Assembly (NCBI GenBank): GCA_029061605.1
Contig: JAIDRT010000030.1
Location: 1,693-65,692 of the forward strand
DNA: 64,000 nt
Direction: 5' to 3'
Source: Clostridia bacterium
Lineage (GTDB): Bacteria > Bacillota > Clostridia > Christensenellales > UBA3700
How positions within the stretch are numbered: the stretch's first letter is position 1; every line of letters begins with the position of its first letter. The notes under the pieces were generated by a model, which saw only the letters and a program-made list of their open reading frames with translations, ran no database searches and was not told the origin of the DNA. Of this stretch, positions 3,431-51,646 are shown piece by piece. The translations under genes and the position numbers were made by a program.

Positions 3431-3681
3431 ATTGAGACAAGTCTCATACAAAAATGACAATAAAGGGGTGTAAAATGGTATTGTCCAAAAGAGGACGAGA
3501 GCGCTAAATAGCGTATGGTATATGACAATAACGTCATTAAAAGCGTTGGTAAAAAGTGCCAGCGTTTTCTTTATGCAGTAGTTCTCTTAAGAATAAAATA
3601 TAAGGCGCTGTATTGACTGCAATATTAAAGCGTGGTACAATAATAGCGCCTATCTCTGGGAGGAGAGAATGGCAAAGAAAA
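3431..3681 (+). repeat. Copy 2 of the ~250-bp leader repeat
   Basis: See copy 1. Confidence 0.9.
3613..3641 (+). promoter_or_regulatory. Promoter of cassette 2
   Basis: TTGACT, a 17-nt spacer, then TGgTACAAT. The same flanking AGGCGCT / AGCGCCT inverted heptamers are present. Confidence 0.6.
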
Positions 3682-18529: not shown

Positions 18530-18883
18530 ATGGGATTTTACGATAAAAACATCAACGGCTTTGTGCCGTATCAGAACGAAGAGGGAACGCTCCCCGAGTA
18601 TACAGACGAACAAATAATGGAAATGCTCTCGCAAGGCAATATAGTTGCAGGTGCAGACGGCAGACCTGTCGTAGTGCCAAGACCAGAGCCGACGGCGGAG
18701 CAAAAACAAGCGCAATATGAAGCAAGAGTAGAGAGCCTTATACGCGAGCGATACACTGTATCACAAGAACTCGCTATAATTCGTCAACAAGAGAGCAAGG
18801 CTGAAGAATATCAAGCCTACTACAACTACTGCGAAGAGTGCAAGGCAAAAGCAAAAGTGGAGGTGTACGACAATGAGGTTTAA
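18530..18883 (+). CDS. Tail-fibre-associated small protein (assembly chaperone or XkdW-like, putative)
   Basis: 117 aa, immediately after the fibre gene. Confidence 0.35.
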   Translation: MGFYDKNINGFVPYQNEEGTLPEYTDEQIMEMLSQGNIVAGADGRPVVVPRPEPTAEQKQAQYEARVESLIRERYTVSQELAIIRQQESKAEEYQAYYNYCEECKAKAKVEVYDNEV

Positions 18884-19403
18884 GATAATAGGCTCTACGG
18901 CTCAACCTATTGAGGCGCAAGTGATGTTTCTTGAGAATGGCGCGCTTGAACTTGAGTTCGACGAATTAAAGACACCTAACAATATATTATACGCTCGTGT
19001 CAAAGGCAAGACCTACGAAACAGCGATAAGAGACAGCAAAGCAAAGATACCCCGCTCAGCAATGGAAAGCGGGGTTTTATATTGCGAAATTGTCGGATAT
19101 ACAGCAGATGGCAAAGCGGCAAACAAAGTTGTGTGCGCACCTATACAGATAGCGTCAGCGCATAGCCAAGTCGAAGAGCCATTGTGCGCGTATCCGCAAA
19201 TCAATGAAGTGCTTGAGAATATGGCAAGGCTTACGCTTGAGGCGCAAGAACTCAAGATAGAATATGAGGCAAAATATAACAAAGTAATTGAACAGCAAGA
19301 GGCAATGCTTGCAGAACTGAAGAAGATTGCGAAATCTTACAACTTGGGTATATCCCTATTCAATATAAATACGGAGGTAAATAACAATGAGAACAAAGGT
19401 TAA
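18873..19403 (+). CDS. Hypothetical phage protein (176 aa, C-terminal coiled coil)
   Basis: ORF whose start overlaps the preceding gene. Confidence 0.4.
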   Translation: MRFKIIGSTAQPIEAQVMFLENGALELEFDELKTPNNILYARVKGKTYETAIRDSKAKIPRSAMESGVLYCEIVGYTADGKAANKVVCAPIQIASAHSQVEEPLCAYPQINEVLENMARLTLEAQELKIEYEAKYNKVIEQQEAMLAELKKIAKSYNLGISLFNINTEVNNNENKG

Positions 19404-19953
19404 AACAACAATTTTGATAGCGTCCTTGATACTTGTCTTGGCGCTTTGTGCAATGGTAGCAACTGTGGGCATTACGTCCACAGCAAATGCGGAAGTCGCA
19501 AGTGGAGAGGCAGAGAGTGGCGAGGTAAGCGCAGTTCCGGAAGAGGAAAGCAAAGGCAATTGGTTTAGCGAGAATTGGAAAGCCATTGTTGAGATAATTA
19601 CGTCAAGCGGTGCGTTGGCAGTCATATTTGCGATAATAAAATTATTTGGTAAGATAGCCAAGTTGAGAGGAGATCTGGGCAGTACCAACACTGACAACAA
19701 GGCAATCAAAGAGGCGTTCAACACAATGGTAGACGAGGTTGAGGGCTTTAAGAAAGAACTTGAAGAGATACATAAGTGGAATGCAATACTCAAGAGCGAA
19801 GTGGCAACGAGCGGAGAGAAGAGTTCGGCAGTACTTGCAATCTTTGAGAAACTTATAGGCGCAAGCGACTTGCCAAACGAGACCAAGCAGGCAATGCAGG
19901 CGGTAATCAACAAGGCTACAATTGGGGAGGATAAGAGCAATGACGAGGCATAA
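19387..19953 (+). CDS. Membrane-anchored coiled-coil protein (lysis-module position)
   Basis: An N-terminal signal/TM segment 'TTILIASLILVLALCAMVATV', a second TM segment 'SSGALAVIFAIIKLF', then a coiled coil. Confidence 0.45.
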   Translation: MRTKVKTTILIASLILVLALCAMVATVGITSTANAEVASGEAESGEVSAVPEEESKGNWFSENWKAIVEIITSSGALAVIFAIIKLFGKIAKLRGDLGSTNTDNKAIKEAFNTMVDEVEGFKKELEEIHKWNAILKSEVATSGEKSSAVLAIFEKLIGASDLPNETKQAMQAVINKATIGEDKSNDEA

Positions 19954-20350
19954 GCAAGGCGTGATATTGTATTATACAGGCATTGTCGTGTCCGTCGTTG
20001 CTCCGCTCATTACCGCTTTGACGCAATTCCCTGTGTGGACTTCTAAAGTACCTAAGACGCAACTGGGCGGTATGTTTATCTTTACCGCCTTGCTGTCGTG
20101 CATACCGTTCCTTAAGCATATCCGAATGCAACTCAAAACGCCGTCCGCAGTGACGGTGTGGGCGATAATATTCTTGATATGTTGGTCTATGAATAAGATA
20201 ATCGTGCAGTTGTATTTGATTGCGCTAGTGGGGCTTATAGCCAACGTCGTGGGAGCGATATTGTGTGCAGTCGGCAATAGATTGAAACGACCGCCTATAT
20301 TTAATAATCAATATATAAATAAGGAGAAAGAGGACAATGCAGAAACTTGA
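19940..20350 (+). CDS. Four-TM small membrane protein (holin candidate)
   Basis: 136 aa counted from ATG 19940, behind GGGGAGG. Four hydrophobic helices and a charged C-terminus. Confidence 0.4.
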   Translation: MTRHKQGVILYYTGIVVSVVAPLITALTQFPVWTSKVPKTQLGGMFIFTALLSCIPFLKHIRMQLKTPSAVTVWAIIFLICWSMNKIIVQLYLIALVGLIANVVGAILCAVGNRLKRPPIFNNQYINKEKEDNAET

Positions 20351-21263
20351 GAATAGAACAGAGAGAATAGACAACTCTCCTGTGGCAAAGAAACTCAATG
20401 TCACGACCAAAGAGTTTTTGGGAATGGCAGTCAATGCATTCTTGATACTTGTCTTGGCTCTGTCTATGTACGTTACGGTCAGCACTTCGTTTGATATAGA
20501 TTGGGGCAAACTCGGATTTACTTCCATATTCGTCTACTTGATAAGTTGCGTAATATACTCCAACTCGCTCAACTTGGGCGAGTCTGCCGTAGCAAAAAAG
20601 CAGGAGTACAAGGACGTTTGCAAGAACTGTATAGACGCCATAGACACGCTCGTCAAGAATAAATACATAGAGCATATAGACGAGTATTGCTCGGAGAAGC
20701 AGAAAGCAGATCTGGAAATGCGTAGGAAAAGCGTATTGGGAGCGGTGTATATCTCTTGGGATAAGTACGTAGAAGAGTATGCGCAAAAGAGCATAAGAGA
20801 GATGCGAGCAATGAAACGAGAGAAAAAAGAGGGCGAGAAAAAGCCTGCGCCATACTTCAACAAGGAGCAAATCATAGCCTTGATAAAAGTAAGGCGAATG
20901 AAGTGTCATAAGTTTTCTCCGCAACAACTCACACGTCCAATAGACGCAAAGAGTGAAGAGTTCTTGGAGGATATATCCAAACTCCGCCGCAAGACAATGG
21001 CAAGGAAAATGCTTATGTCGCTAATGCTGACGCTCATTGCAGTGAGTTTCAGTGTGGAAATGGTCAATGACTTTTCGTATAGGACAGTAGTAGAGGGCGT
21101 CGTTAAACTCATTCCAATGGCGTGGTCTTGGGCGAGCGGACACTTTGCAGGTTACAACATAGCGTCCAACAATAAAATGGCGTATTACAAGGACAAGGCT
21201 CGGTATTGCTTGCAGGCGGACAATTGGCTTAATGAGCGATATAGACAAGCCAACAATAATTAA
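20337..21263 (+). CDS. Membrane protein with a large cytoplasmic basic/coiled domain; last prophage gene
   Basis: 308 aa. Two N-terminal and one or two C-terminal TM helices. No muralytic motif recognised. Confidence 0.4.
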   Translation: MQKLENRTERIDNSPVAKKLNVTTKEFLGMAVNAFLILVLALSMYVTVSTSFDIDWGKLGFTSIFVYLISCVIYSNSLNLGESAVAKKQEYKDVCKNCIDAIDTLVKNKYIEHIDEYCSEKQKADLEMRRKSVLGAVYISWDKYVEEYAQKSIREMRAMKREKKEGEKKPAPYFNKEQIIALIKVRRMKCHKFSPQQLTRPIDAKSEEFLEDISKLRRKTMARKMLMSLMLTLIAVSFSVEMVNDFSYRTVVEGVVKLIPMAWSWASGHFAGYNIASNNKMAYYKDKARYCLQADNWLNERYRQANNN

Positions 21264-21301: not shown

Positions 21302-21326
21302 GGCAGGGGAAACCTTGCCATTTTTC
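21302..21326 (+). terminator. Intrinsic terminator at the end of the prophage late operon
   Basis: GGCAGGG-GAAA-CCTTGCC (one G.U pair) followed by ATTTTT. Confidence 0.55.
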
Positions 21327-21438: not shown

Positions 21439-21459
21439 TGGCAGAGAGTGAGGTATTTG
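21439..21459. repeat. Partial duplicate of the tRNA-Ser 3' end (att-type direct repeat, distal copy)
   Basis: TGGCAGAGAGTGAGG is identical to 27318-27332 (15/15). The next six positions match 5/6, giving 20/21 overall. Confidence 0.75.
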
Positions 21460-21891
21460 TAAGGAGCGAAGCGACGGAATAGCGAGCAAACAATATTTAA
21501 AAAGGCGAGCGTCACAATTTCAGTGATCTGCAACTCTCGCAAAACTTAAGGACACTTTGGAAAGTGTCCTTTAAAATGTGCGTGATGAACAAAAAGGATT
21601 TTTTTAGGGGATACCAGAAGTCGGGACTTGAACTCCACTCGCATAGCCGAAGGCGGGATTTGAACCCCTAAAATCAATTTTTTTCTTATTTAAATTATAT
21701 CACAAAAGGTGTGTTGCGTCAATAGTTGGAGACAAATTTTTTAAAAATTTTATAGATAATAAAAATGTTAAAAAGACGATGTGCAAAATAGAAAAACTAA
21801 TTGTAAAAAATTTATAACAATTTATGGCTTTAAATGAAAAATAGTATAACATTTTGTTAAATAATTTTTTTTGTAAACTATTAGAAAATAG

Positions 21892-21920
21892 TTGACAACT
21901 TTTTTAAAAAATATTAAGAT
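21892..21920 (+). promoter_or_regulatory. Promoter of the island ORF-A/ORF-B operon
   Basis: TTGACA, a 17-nt spacer, then TAAGAT. The palindrome AACTATT-AGAA-AATAGTT (21876-21893) abuts the -35. Confidence 0.5.
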
Positions 21921-21963
21921 ATAATTCTAAACAAAAACCTATTTAAATCGGGGGTGATTTATC

Positions 21964-22890
21964 TTGCCAGAATTACGCAGAATATATTGGGAAATTGCTC
22001 ATAAGGTAAGTTTAGAGTTTTCAAACTTTTCTTATGAATTTGATGTTAATGATTTGAATAGAAGAATAGATAAAATTTTGCTTGAAATAAAAGAAAAATA
22101 TGGCATTGCAAATATGCCTTCTATAAACATTTCAAAAGATGTAGATTTAGTAAATATGACTGATGATGCTGTAAGATTTATTATTAGTGATGAAAATAGT
22201 GCGATTAACGATAATAAATTTGTAAATAGTTCATATATAATTTCTTGTAAAATTGCTAAAGTAATGAAAAAGGGCACAAACAAAAATTACAGCATTGAGT
22301 TAGTTACTAATGATGTTAAAAAAATATATAGTCTTATAATCGATGCAATGTTAGATACTCATATGTTTTATTTGTATGGCTGGAATAATGAGTATGGCAA
22401 TTTAGAAAAGAAGAAAGAGTTTTCTAAATTAAAAGTTAGTTTTTGCAAAAAACATAAATTAACTAGTGTTTTAGATGAATATATAGATTATGATAACTAT
22501 TGTTCCTTTGCTACTTTTTGTAGGAATGATGATTATTCTTTAGACATAGAAAAATTTGTACAACTATGGAAAAAGTTTTCTAGTGAGCTTTTATCAAATT
22601 TGAATCATAAGGATAAAGAGTCTATAGTAGAAGACATTTGCAAGAATTATAAGCATGGTGCAATTTCTAAAAGAAAATTGAAAAACATGATGAAAGATTT
22701 ACCAATGGGTAAGTATTCATTTATACGTATAAGTCGGAAAGTACCTAATTTCCATGCAAAAAAAATGGAATCATTATTTAATGGATCTATAAAAATAGGA
22801 AATATGATTATAATTGATACAATAAAGAAATATAATTATAAAAGGTATTTTGATGCAAAGTACATAGACATAACCGATTTTATTATTTGA
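21964..22890 (+). CDS. Island ORF-A: hypothetical protein, no recognisable domain
   Basis: 308 aa. A TTG start lies 7 nt after GGGGGTG. Rich in Lys, Asn and Ile. Confidence 0.6.
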   Translation: MPELRRIYWEIAHKVSLEFSNFSYEFDVNDLNRRIDKILLEIKEKYGIANMPSINISKDVDLVNMTDDAVRFIISDENSAINDNKFVNSSYIISCKIAKVMKKGTNKNYSIELVTNDVKKIYSLIIDAMLDTHMFYLYGWNNEYGNLEKKKEFSKLKVSFCKKHKLTSVLDEYIDYDNYCSFATFCRNDDYSLDIEKFVQLWKKFSSELLSNLNHKDKESIVEDICKNYKHGAISKRKLKNMMKDLPMGKYSFIRISRKVPNFHAKKMESLFNGSIKIGNMIIIDTIKKYNYKRYFDAKYIDITDFII

Positions 22891-22900
22891 TGATTTATAT

Positions 22901-23860
22901 ATGGGGAAAGAGAATAAGAAGACATTCATTGCTTTTTTTGATTTGCTTGGTGTTAAATCAACGGCTGAATATGATTTTAAATTATATTTTAATTATATAA
23001 ATAGATTTCAATCTCATTTACAGGATTTGGTAAAAGGTCATAATGAGGTTGAAATCTATGCGTTTAGTGATTGTGCATATCTTGAAAGCGAATCATTAAG
23101 TAGTTTATTACAAATTTTAAGAGATTTGCGTAGAGTATTATTTTTAGAAAGAATATATTTTAATGCGGCAGTAACAGAAGGTAGTTTAAACGCCACAAAG
23201 AAATCAGGTGAAAAAATAGATTTTACTTTGTTTAAGTCTGCATCTACAGTTAAAGTTTTTTCATTACAAGTAAACTTTACAGGTATAGGTATTTTTATAG
23301 ACGAACATATAAAAAAGTATATGAAAGGAAATTTAAAGAAACTATTAATTGAAAGTGCTTATTGTGTTAATTTTGAACCTAAAGGTATTAGTACATTTAA
23401 TAAGTTTCTTGATGTTAAATTTATAGAGGTATCGAATCAATTACTAAAATATCTTATAGAGCAGTATTTATCCACTATGACATTAAACGTAAAAGCTTCT
23501 AGATACTATTTATCAGCTATTAATACTTTAATTAATCAAGTAGATTTTGATGATTTAGGGGAATTCATAGATGAAATATATAGTTTATTTTATAAGGACA
23601 CATTTGCAACAGCATTTCTACCAATTGATTTAATGTTTATTAATGCTATTTATAATGGTTTTAGGGAAAAACATGAAGGTCAAATTAATTTATTAGACGA
23701 GTATAATAATTTTTCAGATATCAGTAGAGTTTTAGATAAAGTAATAAAAAAATCGTACTTGGTTAAAGGCATTGTAGATTTAAGATTACAGTCAGATTGT
23801 TTAATAAGTAAAGATAATAAGCATTTATTAGCCAATTATCTGAGTATATATAAAGGATAG
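22901..23860 (+). CDS. Island ORF-B: protein with a class III nucleotidyl-cyclase/GGDEF-palm-like N-terminal domain (putative)
   Basis: 319 aa, starting 10 nt after ORF-A. 'FIAFFD14LLGV' compares with 'FADIxGFT'. 'IYAFSD57CAYL' compares with 'KILGDCYY'. 'IYFNAAVTEGSL' and 'VNF' follow. The Asp-Asp spacing is 43 aa. This is a motif-level call only. Confidence 0.35.
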   Translation: MGKENKKTFIAFFDLLGVKSTAEYDFKLYFNYINRFQSHLQDLVKGHNEVEIYAFSDCAYLESESLSSLLQILRDLRRVLFLERIYFNAAVTEGSLNATKKSGEKIDFTLFKSASTVKVFSLQVNFTGIGIFIDEHIKKYMKGNLKKLLIESAYCVNFEPKGISTFNKFLDVKFIEVSNQLLKYLIEQYLSTMTLNVKASRYYLSAINTLINQVDFDDLGEFIDEIYSLFYKDTFATAFLPIDLMFINAIYNGFREKHEGQINLLDEYNNFSDISRVLDKVIKKSYLVKGIVDLRLQSDCLISKDNKHLLANYLSIYKG

Positions 23861-23950
23861 GATAAATTTTTGCTTTTCAAAGGTGCTTATAATGGCAAAA
23901 TAATTAGAAAACACTTATGAAGAATAGAATTATAAGAGCCTTGGCAAAAA

Positions 23951-24013
23951 GCAAGCCGTTACATAAGTAGCGGTTTCTTCCATTGCCACATAAATCATTA
24001 TTTGTTAGAATAA
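23951..24013 (+). repeat. Copy 1 of a 63-bp terminator-plus-promoter junction repeat
   Basis: Hairpin GCCGTTAC-ATAA-GTAGCGGT with a T-rich tail. Then TTGCCA (23983-23988), a 17-nt spacer, and TAGAAT (24006-24011). About 85% identical to 26122-26183. Confidence 0.75.
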
Positions 24014-24053
24014 GAATGCCAAAACATAAAACAAATGATAGGGAGAGAATTCC

Positions 24054-25190
24054 ATGACAGCATCGGAACAAATTTGCAATGAAATTGGAGCAAAGTTTTT
24101 TAGCAAAGATTTTGTTTATGAAAATTTAAAATTTTATAATGAAAGTAATAAAAGAGTTGAGTTGTGTGACGCCTTATTTGAGTATGCTTCGGTATATGTA
24201 CCTATACAAATAAAGGAACGATCGAAAAATAAAGGCAACAAAACAGAAGAGTCATGGTTAAATGAAATTGTTTATGGAGCAGCGTTTAATCAAATTAAAG
24301 CCACAGTTAAAGCAATTAGAACGGATAATATTGAAGTGAACGATTTATATCATCAAAAGGTTAAATTATGCAAAGATAATTTAATATTCCCAATGATAGT
24401 ATTTGATAATCCCAATATTACTGATTATAAGAGAATTATCATAGATGGGGAACTTATAATCAATGTGTTCAAATTGGAAGATTATGAATCTATGATGCAA
24501 GCAATAATACATCCGTATGACATTATATATTATCTACAAGAGAGAGCTAATTGGATTCAGGATTATAATTTGCCTAATATCGTAATTGGCGAGGGGGTGC
24601 ATAGTACAATTCTTGCTTCAATTAAAACGGAACAGGATTTTGCTTTGTTTTTTATGCAATATATTTACGAAGGTCAAAGTGATAAGCAAAGAGAGGCGTT
24701 ACGTCACCTTAGTTTGATAAATACATTTAGGGATCGTTTAATAAAGAAAGTTTCAAATTATAAAGTGATATTAAATATTCTAGAATTAATAGAACCGAGA
24801 AATGCCGATGGATTTATGAAATGGTTTGATTATGCTTGGAGATGTGCTTGTGATGATAAATTTGATTTTACAAAATCAGTTCAAGTACTATACAATAGTA
24901 AAAAAACGGACATAGTATTCTTTTCTATTGGAAGAAAAGAGTTGGCTTCTAAAAAATACTATCAGTTGCTTCTTGATGCAAAACAATTGCAGCATAAAGC
25001 GGACGCAGTGTTAATTTTCGCATTTATTGGTGATGAGGGAAATAAATGCCACAATGATTGGGTTTATATGGAAAAAGAATACGAGGAAGATGATGATTTC
25101 TTAAGATTTTATGACTCAATAGGAATGTTTAATGGTACAATGAGTTATGAGATTTATGATGAACTATGCAGAAAAATGATTGGCAAATAA
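24054..25190 (+). CDS. Island ORF-C: protein with an N-terminal PD-(D/E)xK (NERD/restriction-endonuclease-like) motif and an unknown C-terminal domain
   Basis: 378 aa. RBS GGGAGAG. 'RVE36LCD39ALFEYASVYVPIQ52IK54E'. Confidence 0.45.
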   Translation: MTASEQICNEIGAKFFSKDFVYENLKFYNESNKRVELCDALFEYASVYVPIQIKERSKNKGNKTEESWLNEIVYGAAFNQIKATVKAIRTDNIEVNDLYHQKVKLCKDNLIFPMIVFDNPNITDYKRIIIDGELIINVFKLEDYESMMQAIIHPYDIIYYLQERANWIQDYNLPNIVIGEGVHSTILASIKTEQDFALFFMQYIYEGQSDKQREALRHLSLINTFRDRLIKKVSNYKVILNILELIEPRNADGFMKWFDYAWRCACDDKFDFTKSVQVLYNSKKTDIVFFSIGRKELASKKYYQLLLDAKQLQHKADAVLIFAFIGDEGNKCHNDWVYMEKEYEEDDDFLRFYDSIGMFNGTMSYEIYDELCRKMIGK

Positions 25191-25226
25191 CCTAATTCAA
25201 GTCTTGTTATCCGCACCAAGTGTATT

Positions 25227-25260
25227 GGTCTAAAAGTCTTCTGACGTTTAGACCGTTTTT
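25227..25260 (+). terminator. Intrinsic terminator after ORF-C
   Basis: GGTCTAAA / TTTAGACC 8-bp stem followed by GTTTTT. Confidence 0.65.
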
Positions 25261-25512
25261 CATCCTAATATAGCAAAATTAGGGCATTTATTGGCATTTC
25301 GAGTTGATTTTTAGTATTTAGCAGCAACTTAATTGGCACAGAACAATGTTTGCACGATAGATTTTGTCAAGAAAAATAAGCAAGGAGCGTAATACAATTT
25401 CTATCTTGGATATGGACTTGAACCTATTATGGCTTTATAAATTGATAAGGTGGAAGTAATAATTAGATTGCAAATAAGTGAGAATATTGGCAAAAGTGTT
25501 TAGAAGGATAAT

Positions 25513-25541
25513 TTGATTTTTGATGGCAGATATGATATAAT
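25513..25541 (+). promoter_or_regulatory. Promoter of ORF-D
   Basis: TTGATT, a 17-nt spacer, then TGaTATAAT (extended -10). Confidence 0.55.
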
Positions 25542-25566
25542 CGCATTAATTTAAATGAGGAAAAGT

Positions 25567-26091
25567 ATGATTGAGAGACTAATTAAAGAAGTAGAATGTT
25601 GTTTGAAAAATGAACTTTATATGTCGGCTTTAACGATCGTATTAACTTTGCCGGATATTTGTGGTAAAGCGGAATTTCCTGAATTAGGGAATGGAGAACG
25701 TTATAGAAAATGGTTGGATCAATATGCTTGTTCACAAGACTTCAATATAATTAGGAGTGAAGAGATATATAAATTGCGTAATAGCATGCTGCACCAGGGT
25801 TCCCCAACAACAAAAAAGAAAGGGGAAGACATTGATGAATTTGAGTTACTTATACAAGATCCAAATAGAGCGAGCAAAATGATGCAATCTAGGTATCAAG
25901 ATTTCAATAAATGTGTATTGAGTATAAATATAGAGTCTTTATGTGGACTTATTTGTTCGGCATCAACAAAATACTATGCTAATAATAAAGAGAAATTTGG
26001 TTTTATTAATTATCGAATAGTAAGCATGGATTATAGTACAGCGAAAATTTTTAGAATAGACAGAGAAGCTGTTAAAATAAAATTTGATTAA
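25567..26091 (+). CDS. Island ORF-D: small helical protein with a HEPN-type RNxxxH motif (putative RNase, Abi-like)
   Basis: About 174 aa counted from ATG 25567, with a GAGG RBS 6 nt upstream. 'KLR75NSMLH80QG' (numbering from ATG 25555) fits Rx4-6H with Asn after the Arg. Confidence 0.4.
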   Translation: MIERLIKEVECCLKNELYMSALTIVLTLPDICGKAEFPELGNGERYRKWLDQYACSQDFNIIRSEEIYKLRNSMLHQGSPTTKKKGEDIDEFELLIQDPNRASKMMQSRYQDFNKCVLSINIESLCGLICSASTKYYANNKEKFGFINYRIVSMDYSTAKIFRIDREAVKIKFD

Positions 26092-26121
26092 ACCATATGA
26101 AAGATGAGCAAATTAATAAAC

Positions 26122-26183
26122 GCAAGCCGTTACGTAAGTAGTGGCTTTTCCATTGACACATAAACCATTACTTGTTATAATAA
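26122..26183 (+). repeat. Copy 2 of the terminator-plus-promoter junction repeat
   Basis: Hairpin GCCGTTAC-GTAA-GTAGTGGC with a T-tail. Then the consensus TTGACA (26153-26158), a 17-nt spacer, and TATAAT (26176-26181). Confidence 0.75.
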
Positions 26184-26309
26184 TGGAAAGATCATTGAAC
26201 ATAGTGGCGCAGTAAATACCTTTGAGTTTTTTTGGGAAAACGGGTTGATTAAGCCATCATAAATATAAATTTCAATCTAACATAATGAAAATCAAAGAGG
26301 TATTACAAT

Positions 26310-27020
26310 ATGAGAATCCAGACATTTGGCAACAAAAATAATAAGGCGGTTTTGCTAATTCATACGCTATTTACAAGCGCGGACTTTTTTGCTCCCATAA
26401 CACAGTTGCTTGCAAATGACTATTTCGTTATCGTTCCAACGTTGTCTGGGCACTATGAAAATTCTGCGTATGTATCAACAGTTGATGAGATAAGACAAAT
26501 AAAAGAGTTCTTGGCTGAAAATAATATCAAAGTCCTTTATGCTGTTGCAGGATTTTCTTTGGGTGGCAATATCGCGTATGAGTTCTTTTGCAATAATGCC
26601 ACAATGATTGAAAAAGTAGTCATAGATAGTGCGCCACTATTCAATTTTCCCAAATTTGTAAAAAATCATTTTCTTAAAAATTATACGAAATGCTTAAAAA
26701 GAATTAAATCGGGTAAGTATGACGTTGCTCATGAATTGAACAAACATTTTAACGGTATGGGGGAATACCAAAAGTATATTGCGCCCATTGTTTCGCAGGA
26801 AAGTCTAGACAGTCTTGTGGGAAGCTGTTACAACACAAAAGTTTACAAACTGCCCCCAACCGAATTGAAAAAAGTTACCTTTATTTATGGCAGTAAGGAT
26901 ATAGCCAGACTTTGTAATATGCGATTAAAAAAGTATCATATCCGTAAGATGAAAGACTATGGGCATTGCGGATTTTATCGGGAAGATCCCGTTGAGTGGG
27001 TAAAACAATTTATTCTGTAA
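26310..27020 (+). CDS. Alpha/beta-fold hydrolase
   Basis: 236 aa. Nucleophile elbow 'GFSLGG'. C-terminal 'DYGHCGF' is a candidate catalytic His. Confidence 0.7.
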   Translation: MRIQTFGNKNNKAVLLIHTLFTSADFFAPITQLLANDYFVIVPTLSGHYENSAYVSTVDEIRQIKEFLAENNIKVLYAVAGFSLGGNIAYEFFCNNATMIEKVVIDSAPLFNFPKFVKNHFLKNYTKCLKRIKSGKYDVAHELNKHFNGMGEYQKYIAPIVSQESLDSLVGSCYNTKVYKLPPTELKKVTFIYGSKDIARLCNMRLKKYHIRKMKDYGHCGFYREDPVEWVKQFIL

Positions 27021-27080
27021 GGTAACATAAACTGTAATTTAGCGTTCCAAAGTAAAAAATTAAGTATTGAGAAGAGCAGG

Positions 27081-27108
27081 GCTACGGCAAAACCGTAGCT
27101 CTTTCTTA
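27081..27108 (+). terminator. Intrinsic terminator after the hydrolase gene
   Basis: GCTACGG-CAAAA-CCGTAGC followed by a T-rich tail. Confidence 0.6.
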
Positions 27109-27263
27109 GATTTAGATAGATTAAAATATTATAATTATTATAATAAAAGGAAAATCCTTTTTGTACAATGAGAACCTAATATGGGGAGTGGAGAGCAGTT
27201 GCTCACAGAAGAAGAGACGGCAAGGCAAGAAGAGAAAAAGTAGGCAAAAAAGCCTAAAAACAA

Positions 27264-27311
27264 AGAAAAACACACGCTTTCGGAGTAATTTGTACGCTCC
27301 TTTTGCGTGTG
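27264..27311 (-). terminator. Terminator downstream of tRNA-Ser (minus strand)
   Basis: On the minus strand, a CACACGC / GCGTGTG stem with an inner stem, followed by TTTTT. Confidence 0.5.
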
Positions 27312-27317
27312 CTTGGG

Positions 27318-27338
27318 TGGCAGAGAGTGAGGGATTTG
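27318..27338. repeat. Proximal copy of the att-type direct repeat (inside the tRNA-Ser 3' end)
   Basis: See 21439-21459. Confidence 0.75.
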
Positions 27339-27407
27339 AACCCTCGGAACGGTTTCCCGTTCACACGATTTCCAATCGTGCGCCTTCGACCACTCAGCCA
27401 ACTCTCT
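27318..27407 (-). tRNA. tRNA-Ser(GGA): tRNA-Ser (anticodon GGA)
   Basis: The reverse complement folds as a cloverleaf. Acceptor AGAGAGT / ACTCTCT. Anticodon arm CACGA-TTGGAAA-TCGTG. Long variable arm GAACGGGAAACCGTTC. T-arm GAGGG-TTCAAAT-CCCTC. Discriminator G and an encoded CCA. Confidence 0.9.
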
Positions 27408-38014: not shown

Positions 38015-41000
38015 ATGAAAAAGACTAAGTTTATTACCGTACTTTTGCTGTTAGCGGTATTGGCAAGTGTGCTTCTCGTAGCGTTTGTTGCCTGCGAGCC
38101 TAAGCCAGACGTTAAAGACGATAATCAACAAAGCGGCAATAGTGGCGAAATCCCGCCAGATGAGCAGCCGCCTTGGACGCCTCCAGATAACGGCGGTGGT
38201 AATAACAAGCCAAAGCCGCCAACCTATACAGCCAAGGAGATGCTCACTAAGATCATTGAATCAGTGGAGGTGCCTGAACAGGCTCTCAATATTGACATAA
38301 ACGCAAAAGTTGATACCGAAGATCAAGTGACGACTATAAACTTGAAAGGTAACTTCTATAACGAAGTCCGCAACGAACTTTGTTTTGCCGTTTACCAACA
38401 ACAAAAGGGCGAGGCTGACTCGCAAAGGCAGTTGGTCTTTGCAATTTACATAGTCAACGACAAGATTTATATAGATATGGCAGACGGTACGCCGCTTATT
38501 TATCTGTCTGATTTTGACTTCAATTATTTAGTTCAAATCATTGAAGGCGCAGGCGGTATGGTGTCAGACTTGATGGGCTCTCTTGACCAGTATAAGGGTC
38601 TCATAGATCTTGTGTTCAATTTTTTATTCGCTACTCCTCAAGTAACTGTCAACGAAGATAATTCTCAATCGCTTGCAATGGAGTTGAAATTAAAGGGACT
38701 CTTGAGCGGCGCCAGTTCTTTGATCGGTTTGTTGCCGTTTGATATTCCTGTAGATCTCAAGCCTCTCTTAGACTACTTATCAAATTTAATTCCCGATCAT
38801 ACTTTATATATAAATGCAAAATTTGACAGCGATAGCAATTTGGAAACCGTAGGCGTCAGCGGCGTCGATAAGACCGCTAACAATAAAGACGTCTTCGATT
38901 TGAGCGTAACGATAGACATACGCGACGAGGCAGAGACTGATATAGGTTTGCCGGGAGACTTGGCAGATAGGGCTATATCTGAATTTAGTTTTACAAATTT
39001 GCAATTCTCTATTGATTTCATAGTAGACTCTGTAAAAGACGAGAGCGGTCACAATAAGAACTTTGACCTTGGAAAGATGCTCAACAGTTTCCTTGGAACG
39101 TCTACGACGATAAGAATACCTGAGGGCTTATTGCTTCTCAACGGCGGCACAGGCGTGAGACTTACGTTTAAGTTGGACTTGGATCTCAACTATGACAAGT
39201 TGCCGCAGGATAACAACAAAGTTGCGATTGAACTGTATCTAATCAATCCTGACGGCACTCTCGTAGATAAAAACTTCAAGCCTCAAATGGGAATTTACTA
39301 TAAAGAAGGTAGTTTTTATCTCAATACGGACAATATGTTGCCTCAATATCTCAACGGACTCAATATAAAACTTGACGCAAGTCTCAACGATTTGGTATCC
39401 AAACTCGTCGATCTCATTACTGACGCTATTGACGGCGTATTCGGTCTTGATTTTGCGGGACTTCGCAAGAATGAAATACAAGTAAACGACAACGGCTCTT
39501 TGACGCTCTCAAGTATGTCTGCGGTGCAGAAGGTAATGGCGTCTACAAGCGCAAGCGTAGTCGCGCTTTCTACTGAAAGCGACGGCAGTTATAAACTTTC
39601 GGCGGGTATCGGAAGTTTTGTTGATATGTTGGCAAGTCTTTTGGGACTCGGCGGACAGATTAAAGACGGCGTCGTGGTAGTAGAGCCTAATATATATACC
39701 GACGATACAAGCATAAAAGTCGTCGTAAACGACAATTTCTTTGAAGTGCTTAGCGGTCTTATACCGCAATTGAAAGGCGTGTCCTTGCCAAAGGAAATAG
39801 GTGATATAGTATTGTCCGTCAACACCTCTCAAGTGGGACTTGACAGCGTCACGGTAGAGACTGTGCTCAACAATACGTCGCAAGTACCCGGTCCAAACAA
39901 CAGTACGGTTACAATTACCGATCCAGCGTTTGCAATACGTCTAGGACTTGGAGGATTTGTTATTGGCTTAAAGGACGATACTTTCTCGGATTACATAGAC
40001 AGCAGAGTGGATGTTGAAAATACCGACTATCTCTCGTCGCTCAACGGCGTGATAGAACATATGCTTGGCGGTATTAGATTTAGCAGCGGATTCTCTCTTG
40101 ACTTTGCGGCAGGCACGTATGATCTTGCGCCGTTTATCGCAGGATTCGGGGTGTCGGAAGTAGAGTCTTCGCAAATCTTGTGGACGTTTGACAACGACTT
40201 CACATTAGACGCGTCACTCAACTTGCAAATTGCGCTCAATAGAACGGATACGGCAAGATCTATGATAGTTTTGGAGATGAAGACTGAGAGCGGAATCAAA
40301 GTCGGCGACCACCAGATCATAGAAAAGGATCAAGTCTTGCTGGGTATATACGGATATAATAATAATATTTATATAGATATATCCAACTTCAATATTGCGG
40401 GTATCGTATTGCCAAAATTGAGTTTCTCGCTCAACTTCACAGACTTGGTATACACGCTTCTTGACAACGTAATAAGCGACTTGCTTAAAAATATTAACGT
40501 GCAAGGCGGAGATCTCAAGTTTGAACTTGACTTCAAGGAATTGCTTGGACTTACGTCTAGCGTCGTAGCGCAAGCAGGCGAAACGCAAAATTCAACTTCG
40601 CGCCTTGCAACTTACGCTCAAACACAAGAAATTGATCCGACTGCGGCAATAATATTTGCATTCAATGCGGATAAGTTCGTTCCGTCGATCTCGCTTGCCG
40701 CAATTCTCGCGGTGCTCAGCGCAACCAATACCGATATAGGCAATACCTTGGCAGAGGCTCTCAGCCTTATGGAATTGGATCTGTCAATTGAGTTGGGAAG
40801 AAACGACGGATTTATCTTCTCCTTTAGCGGTGAATTTATACCTAAACTTGACGAAAACGGCGAAAGCGTATATTACTTTGACGACAAAGGTAATCCTATC
40901 GCAAAAGAAGAGGGCAAGATATACAGAAATATCAAAGATAAGCCTACAAGCAACGAAAACGTAAATCCCAACGTAGTTTACTATACGACTAAGAAGTATA

Positions 41001-44000
41001 ATTACGGCAGCGATATGAAACTGGTATTCTCGGCGGGAACTCCCGACCACCGCGTTATCGTGGGTAATCTTGGAGAGCATAAGTATCCAATTGAGCAGAA
41101 AGCGCAAGAATTTGTAGATTATAAGTCTGATCTCATTGAGGCTATCGTCAATACTGTGGGTAAGGCTTCGGTACAACTGGATATAGACCTCCATACTCTT
41201 GACAATGAGATGAACGTCACACGTCTCATCAACAGTATCTTGGCAAACGTAGGTAAAAAACTCGAATTGCCGATATATCTTGACCTTGACGATTGGAACA
41301 CGCACGTTCAACTTGCATTGGCTTGGGACCTTGACTTGAATAGATCCTCCAATAGCAAGATAATGCTTGAATTGAGATATGAACAAAAAATTATTATGGG
41401 TGTGTATATTCACCGTAATAGCATTATCGTCGACCTTACAGGTTTGGGCTTGTTCAGCGGTGAAATTGTCAATTCTACTATCGTCTCCAAAGTATTCGCA
41501 ATGATAGACGGAGTTATCAAGAATATAGGCAATCTTGACCTCAACGATATAATCAACGATTTGTTGAAGAACAACGGTTTACCGACGGTGGGAACAAAAC
41601 CCGAAGATACTGACAAACTTGCTTTGGGCGAAGAAGTTGCCGCAGACGGCAGCGTGGCTACGCTTGGCGAGGGATTGGAAGTCAAAGATTTCATTAAGTA
41701 CTTGACGCAAGCCATCCATTTGGAGAATACGGCTATCGTCATAGACTTTACTTCTTCGATCATCAATGGAATGCTTAACGACCTTGTTGGCATCAATCTG
41801 GGACTTAATCTTGGACTGGACGGCGTATTCGACTTGTTCGGAGACAGTTTTGATATGGGCTTTACCGTAGAAGACATCACTATGGACTTGTCTCTCAGTT
41901 TGTCACTTGGTAAGGAAGTTATTATACCTATCAACTTCGACGACGTGCCTGACTGGGATGCAACGAGCGGAGAGAGATTTGTTACCACTTTGCTCAACAA
42001 CCTTGATATAGGATTTACTATTGACCTTGCCAACTATACCGGCGACACGGTCAACCTTGAGAATTCCAACAGCGGCGATAGCGTTACGGACAACAATAGG
42101 ATGTATACGAGAATTATTATTGAGAAGGTTACTACGTCAAGCGGTAAAAAACTGACCGGAGTGCAAGGAACGCCAGTGGCTCCGCAAGGCACCTTTGTAG
42201 TTACGCTCGCGCATATCAACAAGGCTATGTACGACGATAATCAGTCTGCATCGGCAAGCGCAACTCCTCTCGTATATGTAGTGCTCGACCACAGAAAGAC
42301 TTCAGGACAGTTGATGTTGGCTCTTACCTCTAATATTCTTACGTTTGGAGCGTTTAACATAGGAAATATGGTGGGAACGCAATACATAAATTTGGATATC
42401 GTGGGTATGTTGGGACCTGTAATAGACAATCTATTCTCGTCCATAGACGGCGCGTTGGACGGTATGAATAACCAGACTGTTGCAGCGATGGCGTTGGACG
42501 ACGGCATTTCAGCGCAGGAAGAAGAGCCGACCGGACTTAACAAAGTATTTGCAGAACTCGATTTAATCAAGTTGCTTGGCGAGAAAGGTATAATGATCAA
42601 TTTGAGAGCCAACGGCACCTTCAACGTAACGATCAATTTTGATACCTATCTTATCAACAAACTTATTGACGATATTTTGAGCCACGTGTTTGCAAAGAAT
42701 ACAGGACACGCTTCGATAGTTGATTTGAGCGTTATGGCGCCTGATATGTTTGACAAAGACTATCTCGGTATGGTCACCTGGACGAGAGAGACGTTTGGCG
42801 CGCAAGGAAAGAGCAATACTTTCTGGGGCGATTTCAGAGAGATTATAGTGCCTATGCTTCAAAGCCTTGTGAAAGGTTTGGGATATAAAGAAGCAGCGCC
42901 ATTATTGGGAGGCGCAGGCTTCTTATTGGGAGACATATTCTACCAAGTAAGACAGATACTGTCAGGCTTGTTGCCGTTTGCGGTATGGAATACTGCGACG
43001 CTCGAAGTCAACGTTGTGGACGCAACCATATCCAATATCCACTTCATAGGTGAGGACACTGACGAGGATATCTATTATGACAATGATCCTAGCAAGGGCG
43101 TAGCCTACAGCAAGGATAAGGATGCGAGAGTCAAAGGTTATTTCACAGAGATATTTATCTACAACTCTTCAAAGAGCGTAGGCGGATCTACTGCGGACGG
43201 TACAAACAACGGTATCGTGACGTGGGCTGACATTCCGACCAGCATAACCTTTATGCCATATATATATACCACGGTCAAAGATGGCGTAGATGAATTGATT
43301 GAGGCACACTTTAAAAACAAAGTGGCAATTTACCAAAAGGGTACCACTATAATGAGATCCAACGTTAAGTTCAAAATAGTTAACGCCAACGGTAGTGAAG
43401 AGGATGTCGGACCTGAAAACCTTTTGGCTAGGTTAAGCGTGGCAGGACACTTCCAAATCAAAGCCATTGCCAACTTCTCAGGCGGAATTACTAGCACGTT
43501 GATGATAGACGTGGAGTCAAGAGATACCGGCGGCGGTCTAGATTACGTAGAAGATATTGAGATGCACGCTTATGACGATACGTTGCCTGATTTCTTGACG
43601 ATATACACAAAAGACGGCAAGTCGAGAAAGATAAATACAGAGTACTTGTCTGTGTCAAATTGGAGACCGACTGATTACAAGGCGCACGACGTGCAGGCTA
43701 CAGTTGCGTTCAAGAACGGCACTACGTTGCCAATGACTATACATTACCTTGATAGCACGGTAACTAAGATAATTATCGACGGTACGGAAGGTATCAACGT
43801 CAATATCGATCTCTATCAGTTTGACATTAATACGTCTAAGATAGACGACTTTACTCCGTCGACGCTGTACTTCAAGTATCCCGACGGCAAGGCAGTGGGA
43901 CTTGACGTACTCAGCGGTTGGGAAACCTCGGCGGCAACTGCTAATCTCTTTGGCAGACCTATTGACGTAGACGGCAAGTATTCTTCAGACGTCAGCGGCG

Positions 44001-45910: not shown

Positions 45911-45925
45911 TTGGGGGAGAATTAG

Positions 45926-48900
45926 ATGAGAGTAAAAACTTTAAAGAGAATAAGTCTAATATCAATTTTAATAATAGCAGCGCTTGTTGTGTCTTTGGTT
46001 GCAGTGACGTTTTTGACGGATACTCAACCTAAGGCGCAGGCTGCTGCGGGTACGCTTTATACGGCGGAGTATCAAGGTGACAACGGCACCTTGGACGGAC
46101 AACATTACGATAGAAATTTTATAGCCGCAAAATACGGCGTTTCTACAAGCCAAGTTTTTTCCATCGCTTCTGGCTTGGAATTGTATAAATTTCTCAATGG
46201 AGAGTACAGCAGTTATAAAGTAGGTTTTCTTACTCGTGACGTGGCTATTGCTTATAACGCCAGCGTAGACGGATATGATACTATATCTGAAAACAGTTCG
46301 GCTGCTATCTTTGACGACATATTCGACGGTAACGGTTATACTGTAAAAATCTATGGCGGAGCAGGCGAGGCCAATTCTACCGTAGAGATCGAAGATGATT
46401 ACGATTATAGATTGACGTATAGAGATGGCAATCCAAAATACGACAACAACGGCAATTATCAAGTTTGGTACGAATATACAGGATTTTTAGTTGCTCAAAA
46501 CTACGGTACTATTGCCAACTTTACTATTGACTATACTTCTCCTCACAACGTAATCGAGGCGGTCAAAGTCGGAGATTTGAAAATTACTACAGCGAATAGA
46601 TTGCTCTCAAAAAGAGAGGGCGTCTTTGTTGCGGGAATAGTCGCAGGACTCAACGGATACGGCGGAGTCATTGACAACTTGAAGATCAATGTTAAAAATG
46701 CTTTTACAGTAGTTAAGCAGAACAGTGCTGATAAAGATGGCGGAGTACCTAATAAGAGTGCAGGTTATGCGGGCGGTATTGCCGGCAGAATAGAGGACAA
46801 CAGCAAAATTAACAACTGTTGGGTAGACTTGGCTTACGGCGCAGGTGTATCTGCCGGCGCTGAAGGTAGAGTATCTCAATTTCCAGCGACGGATAATAAC
46901 AATACCTTTGCGGTTGCAGGCGGAATCGTCGGCAATATTGACACAGGTACTGCTCAACTTACTTACTGCGCTTTGTCAGGCAGCGGACAAGTCAAAGCAT
47001 TTGCCAACAGAGGATCAAACGACTCAAAGTTTAGGGCTTATTCGGGAGGAATAGCAGGCGGTTGTATTAGATTTACGGGTACATCAACCAAAGGTACGGC
47101 AATCGTAGTCGACTGCAATAGCGACACCAACGTGCGGGTTAAGTCAGGACAAATAAAAGGTATTATTTCGTCCTGGACAGGAAGCAGATTCACCAACTTC
47201 AATAATAATCCGAAAGAATCTATGGGGTCGCTTTTTGACGCTGTGGGAAGCGATGACGAAATAGAGAGTCTTGCAATTCTATTTAATCTTGAGACTTTGA
47301 TGGACAATAACCCCACTGCGCACAAACCGACGTCAACTGATGGAAAACTTGTGTTGGACTCTTCGGGTAATTTAAGAAATTGGCTGGAGATACATCCTGC
47401 TTCCGAAGGCGGAACAATGGGTGTAATGTTTGACACAGACAATTCTAATTATGATATAAGAATACATATAATTGCGGACGGACACGACGAATTCAAAAAC
47501 AGCGGAGTTATGAACAATGTCGATATGAGCGGCTCAGCGCGTTATTATCAATACAAAATGCGCGAGGGCGACGGCGGAGGCTTCATTTGGTCGGGTACTT
47601 TTTCAAACGCTAACGACTCATCCAATCACATAAGTCTTGCTCTTGATGATCCTATCTACGCAGAGATCTATATGATTTCTTCGACAAATACCGGTAGTTA
47701 TAATTATGAGTTCGGACGTATGGGAATACTTGAGTACAGCGATACCAACGGAAACAACGGAGTAAAGCCGTATAACGGTACGGCAGATCCGCTTAAACTT
47801 CCATCTGTCTCAATGACGAATTATCCTGCGTTTGATACGAGCGTATTTACAAATGAGAATCTTTGGAATATTTCGCGTAGCGGCAAAAATGTAAGTCTCT
47901 CTCAGACTTATATGCCCGGTACGTACAGTATGAGAGTTGAGACTAAACTTGGCGAGCGTTCGTACGGATATTATAATGAGACGGAAAGGATGCTTGCTTG
48001 GCAACCTAGTGCGGATTACGTGTTTACGATATTGCAAGGCGTGCTTAGTTTTGGTAATAGAACAACGACTGCGGACGGCTGGCAGGATCAAGTTACGTTC
48101 GAACTCACTATGAATAGCGCAAGCGACTTTGACAGTATTGAATTCCAACGCAACGGAGAATTCCCAAGTAATTCAACAGAGGGCTTTACACGAAGCGGAG
48201 CAAGCGCATTCTATACTGTAACTGAGACTACAGGTAAAAACGGTACGGCTTATACATTCTATGCTTACAAGAGAGACGCTGTCACTGAAGAAAACGTCGT
48301 GGTAGCAATAAGCGAGAGCAGAACTGTGCGTATAGACAGAGAGGCGCCTGAAGTAAGCGAAATAGAGTACTATATGGTCGAAGACGGCGGAGAGAGACTT
48401 TTGTCCGACGAGGACTTAGAATATATTCAAGAGCACTGGACAAAAAATCAGATTTTGGCAAAGTTCTCCGTAAGCGACAACGGAAAGTCAGGTATTGCCA
48501 TTGCGGCTACAGGCAACAATATAGAAGAAACTGTGCTTAATAACAATGGAGACAGAGAGGTCGTGGTTACTATCAACGACAGCAAGCCGTTGATATTGGA
48601 GTACACTGACGCAAGAGGTCATACAACGCCTGTAAAATTGCAAGTCAATATAGATAGAGTAGAAGGCAGACTATCATTCTCAGGCTCGTCCTATAGAACA
48701 GAAGGTAGATTTAACTACAGTACCAAAAACGTATCAGTGCGCTACGTTGCCAACTTCGGTATGTCGGGTTGGAGAATGTATTACAGTTATCAAAGAGACG
48801 CGCAGGGCGAAGATATTTGGATAGCAAGTCCAGATCTTTTGACGGACAGCGGAGCAGTAAAGACATTTACTATTGACTGGAATATGGGCAACATCAACAC

Positions 48901-51631: not shown

Positions 51632-51646
51632 TATGGAGGAAGAATT

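Follow-up and report, generated by a model that had tools for sequence, protein, structure and literature searches.

Do four neighbouring genes of low guanine-plus-cytosine (GC) content make up one anti-phage signalling system, or are they several systems lying side by side? The question is raised by a block at positions 21964-26091 of a 64,000-nucleotide stretch of contig JAIDRT010000030.1, from a Clostridia bacterium assembly (GCA_029061605.1). That whole stretch is the DNA analyzed here, and we refer to it as the window. The first-pass annotation of the block had described four open reading frames (ORFs) on one strand, a collapse of base composition and an absence of recognizable families, and it had left open whether they were one new signalling system or two or three small systems stacked together. 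The ORF listing contains the four frames, all on the same strand and of the lengths described (308, 319, 378 and 174 or 178 residues); we call them ORF-A to ORF-D. Their GC contents are 24.8%, 25.4%, 30.1% and 31.0%, compared with 42.0% in the prophage on the left and 43.0% in the host chromosome on the right. The collapse is therefore real, from 42-43% in the flanks to 25-31% in the block.

We conclude that the block is not one four-gene system. It consists of three independently mobile modules, A-B, C and D, which have their own promoter-like and terminator-like signals. With moderate confidence, we read the setting as an integrase-less tRNA-Ser island on which three mobile modules are stacked: A-B would be a candidate signalling defence that is Pycsar-like without being Pycsar, ORF-C a nuclease and ORF-D a HEPN-type RNase.

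None of the four proteins matched Pfam, NCBIfam or PADLOC at E<=1 with a meaningful score. The earlier statement that none belongs to a named family or PADLOC system thus stands, and the lack of a PADLOC match is what had been predicted for something new. When Pfam, NCBIfam, PADLOC and PHROGs were scanned with the single proteins and with their whole families, the sole match recovered in the block was that of ORF-D to phrog_18591 (PHROGs, 9e-30), whose function is not known. Single-sequence and family-profile searches of PDB sequences gave nothing usable for any of the four: the ORF-A and ORF-D families had no relative there by sequence, and the ORF-B family profile recovered no cyclase. No transmembrane segment was found in any of the proteins.

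Modularity of the low-GC block

We asked which of the four genes keep company elsewhere by scanning all fetched homologue loci with tblastn and with hidden Markov models (HMMs) of each family. Searches had returned 20 homologue clusters for ORF-B, 68 for ORF-C and 3 for ORF-A, none with a Pfam domain or an informative name. A relative of ORF-A lay immediately upstream, on the same strand, wherever an ORF-B locus was recovered (about 17 distinct contexts in three phyla). In the window, a 10-nucleotide spacer separates the ORF-A stop from the ORF-B start. For the divergent pair at locus L030, the relationship to ORF-A was recognized by hhalign at 96.7% probability; for a pair on a Rhizobium leguminosarum megaplasmid, in which the genes overlap by 4 nucleotides, the value was 64% (E 6e-5). 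No relative of ORF-C or ORF-D was present at any fetched A-B locus, and the fetched ORF-C loci held no relative of ORF-A, ORF-B or ORF-D. Among the loci scanned, the window alone combines the A-B pair with either of the other genes. The genes found next to ORF-C relatives in three contexts (215, 244 and 281 residues) are unrelated to ORF-D and to one another, and hhalign of the ORF-A profile against the ORF-B, ORF-C and ORF-D profiles detected no relationship. Co-occurrence, which had been proposed as a check, therefore held for A and B as a recurrent pair but not for ORF-C and ORF-D, each of which is found without the others.

DNA-level comparisons divided the block in the same manner. Positions 22174-23826 match A-B loci only, at 70%, while a cassette at 24006-25426 matches ORF-C loci only and is 88.5% identical to its counterpart in loci L007-L010; homology to other genomes breaks exactly at the module borders. 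GC content likewise splits the block, with 25% in ORF-A and ORF-B versus 30-31% in ORF-C and ORF-D. Promoter-like sites (at least 10 of 12 consensus matches) precede ORF-A, ORF-C, ORF-D and a hydrolase gene that follows the block, and stable hairpins follow ORF-B, ORF-C, ORF-D and the hydrolase gene (Table 1). The ORF-C/ORF-D segment is bracketed by a 63-nucleotide direct repeat (23951-24013 and 26122-26183, 87% identical, 2171-bp spacing), each copy being a hairpin with a 10-bp stem followed by a promoter-like -35/-10 pair. This repeat may be a point of cassette exchange or recombination.

Related genomes provided a further view of the same separation. An orthologous operon encoding an extracytoplasmic function (ECF) sigma factor (190 residues), a 283-residue protein and a 220-residue protein, 56-73% identical, is located just downstream of a module in two loci, ORF-C in L007 and A-B in L021. 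In L037, a 3-kb contig, the sigma factor and 283-residue genes lie downstream of an ORF-D that is 92% identical to ours, and the contig is too short to hold the 220-residue gene. Each module keeps different company beside this operon: a hexapeptide transferase and a GTPase with ORF-C in L007; Rep/integrase, DUF4062 and YfbU with A-B in L021; and YpsA with ORF-D in L037. Judged from these sequences, the presence of the ECF-sigma operon identifies a hotspot of variable content in related gut Firmicutes.

Perhaps the four genes are nevertheless one new four-component system, in which the cyclase supplies a signal to two effectors, the nuclease and the HEPN protein? A common strand, close spacing, shared low GC and building blocks typical of defence systems had made this attractive. 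We now consider it scarcely credible: more than the A-B pair occurs together only in the window, ORF-C and ORF-D bring their own promoter-like and terminator-like signals, the GC of A-B is unlike that of C and D, DNA homology breaks between the modules, and the same hotspot in related genomes holds the modules separately. Hence, co-occurrence, DNA-level sharing, GC, promoter and terminator signals, and hotspot contents all lead to three independent modules, and of the two possibilities first raised it is the stack that is favoured.

The proteins of the three modules

We obtained an AlphaFold2 model of ORF-B with a mean predicted local distance difference test score (pLDDT) of 89.6 and a predicted template-modelling score (pTM) of 0.90. 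When the model was compared with the PDB by Foldseek, the top 50 matches, which concern its first ~175 residues, were all catalytic domains of class III adenylate or guanylate cyclases (AC/GC). They had probability 1.00, E values as low as 2e-6 and template-modelling scores normalized to the target of up to 0.72 (0.53-0.72 for single-domain chains). In class III cyclases, one metal-binding Asp ends beta1 and the other is in the beta2-beta3 hairpin. In the model, D14 (IAFFDLLG) closes beta1 and D57 lies in the beta2-beta3 hairpin. D14 is nearly invariant and F55-S56-D57 (FSDCAY) is invariant among 20 homologues, and the family alignment also shows conservation of R77, F87-N88-A89, G128, G130 and a C-terminal ARYYLS. 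The spacing of 43 residues between D14 and D57 resembles that of the catalytic Asp pair of PycC, D102/D146 (PMC11224242). A class III nucleotidyl-cyclase fold for the N-terminal domain is well supported by the model, and the earlier suggestion of a class III cyclase-like protein, which had been made from the two Asp motifs, is borne out by the fold and by the conservation of both residues. ORF-B shares its fold, secondary-structure order and Asp sites with the domains of Cya2 (2W01), Rv1900c (1YBT), Ma1120 (4WPA) and soluble guanylate cyclase (sGC, 3UVJ), but it is only 8-16% identical to them, has no profile match and shows no evident Asn/Arg pair. ORF-B sits in a mobile two-gene module and is not fused to signalling sensor domains. 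Residues ~179-319 form an all-helical domain that matched nothing, and a scan of IMG/VR found no ORF-B relatives.

Eleven diverse members of the orphan ORF-A family have in common R71, S90-H91, a DVMLDIQMFY helix (D127, D131), RKEFSxLK (K157), W202 and G279. In one subclade of A-B loci (L001 and L032-35), a third gene lies upstream. Its product of about 345 residues has a helix-turn-helix (HTH)-like N terminus and a weak match to DUF6471. The three copies at L001 4339-5373, L032 2928-3959 and L035 3894-4958 are 39-68% identical, and the gene is absent from the window.

Where is the A-B pair found? Its hosts are Ruminococcus, Lachnospiraceae, Acutalibacteraceae, rumen metagenome-assembled genomes (MAGs) and one Chitinophagales MAG; the Rhizobium plasmid genes are a probable divergent pair by sequence, and a 6-kb scaffold from faeces, submitted under the name 'Bacteriophage sp.', carries another pair. 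In most contexts with usable flanks, defence or mobile-element genes lie within a few kilobases. In a Ruminococcus MAG (L025, 7014-10575), a gene for a CAP12/Pycsar-type TIR protein (PF10137, 5.5e-38) and a ThsA_Macro gene follow ORF-B at spacings of 15 and then 20 nucleotides, and this may be a four-gene operon joining the cyclase pair with a Thoeris-like pair. Other neighbours are an HD/HD_assoc dGTPase-like gene with an integrase (L026), SLFN_AlbA_2 (L027), ArdC (L028), AbiEi/AbiEii (L032-34), a Cap4-type nuclease (Cap4_nuclease) with IS21 (L030), insertion sequence (IS) elements with a reverse transcriptase (L031), a serine recombinase with a protein kinase, a UvrD-PDDEXK protein and a methyltransferase (L006), Rep_1 with an integrase fragment and DUF4062 (L021), and SRA with DUF4326 (L002). 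In the window, the neighbours are the prophage and the tRNA-linked island itself.

ORF-C had been called PD-(D/E)xK-like from a motif. Among 38 homologues, E5, E36, D39, Q52, I53, K54 and R56 are invariant. In the model (pLDDT 89.2), E5 is in helix 1 (residues 3-15), D39 precedes beta2 (40-44), and Q52-x-K54 is in beta3 (47-55), which a long helix follows; as modelled, this is the canonical PD-(D/E)xK site layout in its QxK variant. The motif part of the earlier assignment is thus upheld, with the residues invariant and placed on beta2 and beta3, while matches to the restriction-endonuclease-like alpha-beta-beta-beta-alpha-beta core fold are weak but consistent. The best Foldseek E value was 6e-3, yet the matches of high probability were to nucleases of the restriction fold; McrC (7VSR_M) and R.BspD6I (2P14) were matched with probability 0.99 and low template-modelling scores, and Cas4, the R2 restriction-like endonuclease (RLE), Bax1 and bunyaviral cap-snatching endonucleases were other high-probability matches with weak E values. 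Viral models in BFVD gave weak, mixed matches. ORF-C resembles PD-(D/E)xK defence nucleases (McrC/Mrr-type type IV restriction, Shedu SduA and Cas4-like enzymes) in being a single gene with D...(Q/E)xK on beta2/beta3. It differs from them in having no Pfam or PADLOC match, DUF4263 (Shedu), Mrr_cat and McrC included, in the weakness of its fold matches (E >= 6e-3), and in a C-terminal stretch of 200 residues that could be assigned to no family.

Relatives of ORF-C form a single-gene module with changing neighbours, carried by integrative and conjugative elements (ICEs) and as island cargo. One relative (45% identical; L011-L013, 1208-8140) ends a DndB-C-D-E cluster together with a 281-residue gene, in an ICE with PcfJ/PcfK/ArdA. 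With such a neighbour, one may ask if some relatives serve as the restriction partner of phosphorothioate modification. Another, in a different ICE, adjoins DUF4238 and an integrase, and those in a tRNA-linked island family follow the hexapeptide-transferase/GTPase pair. The phage collection contained no relative of ORF-C, and the matches on two Vibrio plasmids are only ~20% identical. Most likely, ORF-C functions as a stand-alone restriction-like nuclease.

ORF-D probably starts at its fifth residue, M5, since the family alignments begin there; the likelier gene is then 25567-26091, of 174 residues, which is the length estimated in the first-pass annotation. An exhaustive HMMER search (E <= 1e-3) placed it in a family of 1,322 representative clusters, most of them stand-alone proteins of 160-200 residues. 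Among 48 diverse members A21, D30, C32, R71 and H76 (numbered from M5) are invariant, which gives the two motifs LxxPDxC and R-x4-H. The R...H pair that had been singled out in the first place (R75 and H80 in the 178-residue numbering) is invariant in these relatives down to 23% identity and is kept in phage homologues as well. The residue after the Arg is usually Cys, as opposed to the common polar N/D/H of HEPN proteins. Some relatives (317-413 residues) have extra domains, and no Pfam domain was found in the fusion partner. In three phages, Erysipelothrix phage SE-1, Gordonia phage Bowser and Acinetobacter phage TCUAN1, the ORF-D homologue has the lysis cassette on one side and the integrase or the end of the genome on the other. 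Temperate phages usually carry their accessory genes in that slot. Like HEPN abortive-infection and toxin RNases (Apea-like, AbiU2/AbiV-type), ORF-D is small and has an invariant R-x4-H, and its family occupies a temperate-phage accessory slot; unlike them, it has no significant profile match to any described HEPN family and usually carries the Cys. The family of small proteins to which ORF-D belongs, with members in temperate phages, is very large and unannotated. Because the catalytic-looking motifs are conserved across the ORF-B (20 members), ORF-C (38) and ORF-D (48) families, they are not the chance matches that short motifs can be. We class ORF-C and ORF-D as new candidate members, so far without annotation, of broad mechanistic classes.

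Candidate functions and rival explanations

Cyclic-nucleotide immune signalling, as in CBASS, Pycsar, type III CRISPR, Thoeris and Panoptes, is a productive area in which new pairings of synthase and effector have brought new chemistry. How does A-B compare with these systems? In its predicted working, Pycsar comes closest. Like Pycsar, A-B is a two-gene operon with a class III-fold cyclase whose two metal-binding Asp residues are ~43-44 residues apart (PMC11224242), and both are mobile and occur in defence islands. The likeness extends to clade F Pycsar in the effector-then-cyclase gene order and in the Thoeris-like pair directly behind, which was seen once for A-B; clade F Pycsar with type IV Thoeris is a validated precedent for a cyclase pair followed by Thoeris in one operon (PMC13069673). 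Unlike Pycsar, neither ORF-B nor its 19 relatives match PADLOC PycC or a Pfam cyclase model, ORF-B adds a helical C-terminal domain of ~140 residues, and ORF-A has no cyclic-nucleotide-binding domain (CNBD), transmembrane segment or TIR domain detectable by sequence. At the sequence level, then, A-B fails two defining tests of Pycsar, the PycC profile and the CNBD-transmembrane/TIR effector. Panoptes, in which mCpol/OptS is paired with the 2TM-beta effector OptE under a 'guard' logic (PMC12657218), is likewise small and made of two genes, one for a nucleotide synthase of palm fold and one for a partner that looks non-enzymatic. However, the closest structures to ORF-B are class III cyclases and not Cas10/mCpol, and ORF-A has no transmembrane helices; hence A-B is not Panoptes. 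Nor is it CBASS, since the CD-NTase of CBASS has a Pol-beta fold, as opposed to the class III fold of ORF-B; PADLOC gave no CBASS match.

If the stack of three modules is read as defence cargo, ORF-B would make a nucleotide second messenger upon phage infection, and this messenger would act on ORF-A, taken as receptor or effector, so that the infected cell is stopped: Pycsar-like logic with non-Pycsar parts. ORF-C would contribute a restriction-like, DNA-targeting defence through E5/D39/Q52-x-K54, and ORF-D would be a HEPN-type RNase for abortive infection or superinfection exclusion. We infer the anti-phage role from gene context, and all of the biochemical activities are likewise predictions. 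More tentatively, one could go further: A-B might be an undescribed nucleotide-second-messenger immune system of Bacillota, Bacteroidota and, through the probable divergent pair, Alphaproteobacteria, in which a divergent cyclase of class III fold, equipped with a helical sensor domain of its own, signals to an ORF-A effector of new fold and mechanism. Its product might be non-canonical, because the Asn/Arg pair is missing. Separately, the ORF-D family, with its >1,300 clusters, might be a large and so far unannotated group of HEPN-like proteins that phages carry for abortive infection. This fuller version is possible, though we would not rely on it.

Several results weigh against reading the three modules as defence. 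No Pfam or NCBIfam model, Guanylate_cyc included, matched ORF-B at E<=1, and none of the 20 ORF-B family members matched the PADLOC Pycsar/PycC models at that threshold. The transition-state Asn/Arg pair of canonical class III cyclases is on helix alpha4. In the corresponding stretch of ORF-B, around helix 114-125, S113, T116, V119 and Q123 are conserved and no Asn or Arg is invariant. Given this and the lack of a profile match, ORF-B may make a product other than a 3',5'-cyclic nucleotide monophosphate (cNMP), or may have a regulatory role. To cast ORF-A as the effector is a guess from sequence: its 11-member family contains no Pfam domain, cNMP_binding and TIR included, the protein has no cNMP phosphate-binding-cassette motif, and its maximum 19-residue hydropathy of 0.91 indicates no transmembrane segment. 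All fold matches of ORF-C are weaker than E = 1e-3. We put the chances that ORF-D is HEPN-like at about even, a call based on the motif; HEPN_Apea gave marginal matches in 2 of the 48 family members (E ~0.03). The promoter-like sites are no commoner in the region than in shuffled sequence. Finally, the link of A-B with defence genes is guilt by association, judged by eye over ~15 contexts with no enrichment statistic, and the neighbourhoods of L001, L029, L035 and L039 were uninformative or outside the scan.

Could A-B instead be selfish? An addiction or regulatory module of mobile elements, whether a toxin-antitoxin (TA)-like pair or a cNMP-based maintenance regulator, would fit a pair that invariably lies within or next to mobile DNA (integrases, Rep, IS elements, ArdC, a megaplasmid), whose genes are as tightly coupled as the 10-nucleotide spacer here and the 4-nucleotide overlap in Rhizobium indicate, and which PADLOC does not match. 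Yet its immediate neighbours are repeatedly defence genes (TIR/ThsA-Macro, AbiE, Cap4 nuclease and dGTPase-like HD) and not transfer or replication genes. Many validated defence systems are TA-like too, so that the two readings overlap; we regard an addiction module in place of immunity as unlikely.

A different doubt concerns chemistry. The palm/cyclase fold of ORF-B might produce a linear or oligonucleotide signal, emit a Panoptes-like constitutive 'guard' signal, deplete nucleoside triphosphates or be a dead sensor, with ORF-A an enzyme or toxin controlled otherwise. The unconserved Asn/Arg pair, the absent Guanylate_cyc and PycC matches and the lack of a cNMP-binding signature in ORF-A all point in this direction, and related palm enzymes (mCpol, Panoptes) use inhibitory signalling (PMC12657218, PMC12657230). 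However, the complete or near invariance of the metal-binding Asp pair and of several residues around it speaks for catalysis; the top structural neighbours are all true cyclases and not Cas10, GGDEF or polymerases; and ORF-A has no transmembrane segment, unlike Panoptes effectors. We therefore think that another chemistry of this sort is quite improbable, and we continue to prefer A-B as a candidate Pycsar-like signalling defence. The pair is a small, testable case: 1.9 kb, two genes, clear catalytic residues and a predicted cyclase that Pfam, NCBIfam and PADLOC miss, next to a partner with no known likeness. If it protects against phage, cyclase-based immunity would extend beyond the Pycsar families and would gain a new type of effector.

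The tRNA-Ser island and its surroundings

The block had been placed in a tRNA-linked island beside a prophage, and the tRNA-Ser(GGA) gene, an att-like repeat and prophage genes were all found (Table 1). The island is 5.9 kb long (21441-27317), with no integrase between the end repeat and tRNA-Ser. Its left boundary is a copy of the tRNA-Ser 3' end that sits at the GC transition and parts the island from the prophage. Only ~0.0005 matches of 14 nucleotides to the tRNA would be expected by chance in 64 kb on both strands. We accept the repeat as an att remnant because of this rarity, because it falls exactly at the GC break, and because the region adjoining it is homologous to other island ends. 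The islands in L007-L010, which bear other cargo, have a homologue of that region (21463-21680) at their left end. Both end segments are conserved there at 79-97%; they adjoin each other, and different cargo comes after them. We read these as an island family that targets tRNA genes, with conserved ends and exchangeable cargo, and that stands here in tandem with a prophage. What appears to be a single operon can thus be a stack of independent cassettes between conserved island ends, with the cargo open to exchange.

Table 1. Positions in the window of the genes, signals and island ends described in the text
Feature	Position	Strand	Description
tRNA-Ser 3'-end direct copy, degenerate	21441-21462	.	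14 nt exact GGCAGAGAGTGAGG, then partial; att-like left boundary
Conserved island left-end region	21463-21680	.	hairpin terminator and two tRNA 3'-half-like fragments (~21610-21672); blastn 79-87%
Promoter-like site	21892-21920	+	TTGACA-17-TAAGAT, upstream of ORF-A; consensus match only
ORF-A	21964-22890	+	TTG start, 308 aa; no transmembrane segment
ORF-B	22901-23860	+	319 aa; predicted cyclase-fold domain ~residues 8-175, all-alpha C-terminal domain ~179-319
Hairpin after ORF-B	23953-23976	+	first half of the 63-nt repeat; deltaG -15.4 kcal/mol, z = -4.2
Promoter-like site	23983-24011	+	TTGCCA-17-TAGAAT, with TG, upstream of ORF-C
ORF-C	24054-25190	+	378 aa; predicted PD-(D/E)xK-like nuclease, C-terminal alpha/beta domain
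Intrinsic-terminator-like hairpin and U-run after ORF-C	25226-25265	+	z = -4.3
Promoter-like site	25513-25541	+	TTGATT-17-TATAAT, with TG, upstream of ORF-D
ORF-D	25567-26091 (25555-26091)	+	174 aa from M5 (178 aa from first ATG); invariant LxxPDxC, R-x4-H
Second hairpin-plus-promoter copy	26124-26181	+	after ORF-D, upstream of hydrolase gene; perfect TTGACA-17-TATAAT (26153-26181)
Alpha/beta-hydrolase gene	26310-27020	+	236 aa, GC 35.7%; last cargo gene of the island, own terminator
Island right-end segment	27265-27317	.	abuts tRNA 3' end; conserved in L007-L010
tRNA-Ser(GGA)	27318-27407	-	3' end towards island; integration site

Within the left-end region, two fragments resembling the T-arm and acceptor of a tRNA (~21610-21640 and ~21645-21672) are both kept in L007-L010. 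Together with the boundary copy, there are three tRNA 3'-end-like fragments in 21441-21680, which look like scars of serial integration or the multi-att end of an island family. A match to the Rfam family 'Plastid-psbl-rps4' on the strand opposite the tRNA scored below the gathering score, and we discarded it as an artefact.

The left neighbour of the island is a prophage that encodes a CI-like repressor (60-713, minus strand), the large terminase, the portal, tail proteins and a spanin-like protein; it ends with a terminator near 21302-21319. Its final genes, 18873-21263, encode small or membrane proteins, with one weak spanin-like match; no endolysin was recognized among the prophage ORFs scanned. 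Other contigs also carry close relatives of the 308-residue membrane protein encoded at 20337-21263. The prophage's early region contains a direct repeat of ~235 nucleotides (2230-2462 and 3431-3664), 88-89% identical at a spacing of 1.2 kb. On the host side, three consecutive giant ORFs of 2631, 1901 and 2113 residues occupy 38015-57988 on the plus strand.

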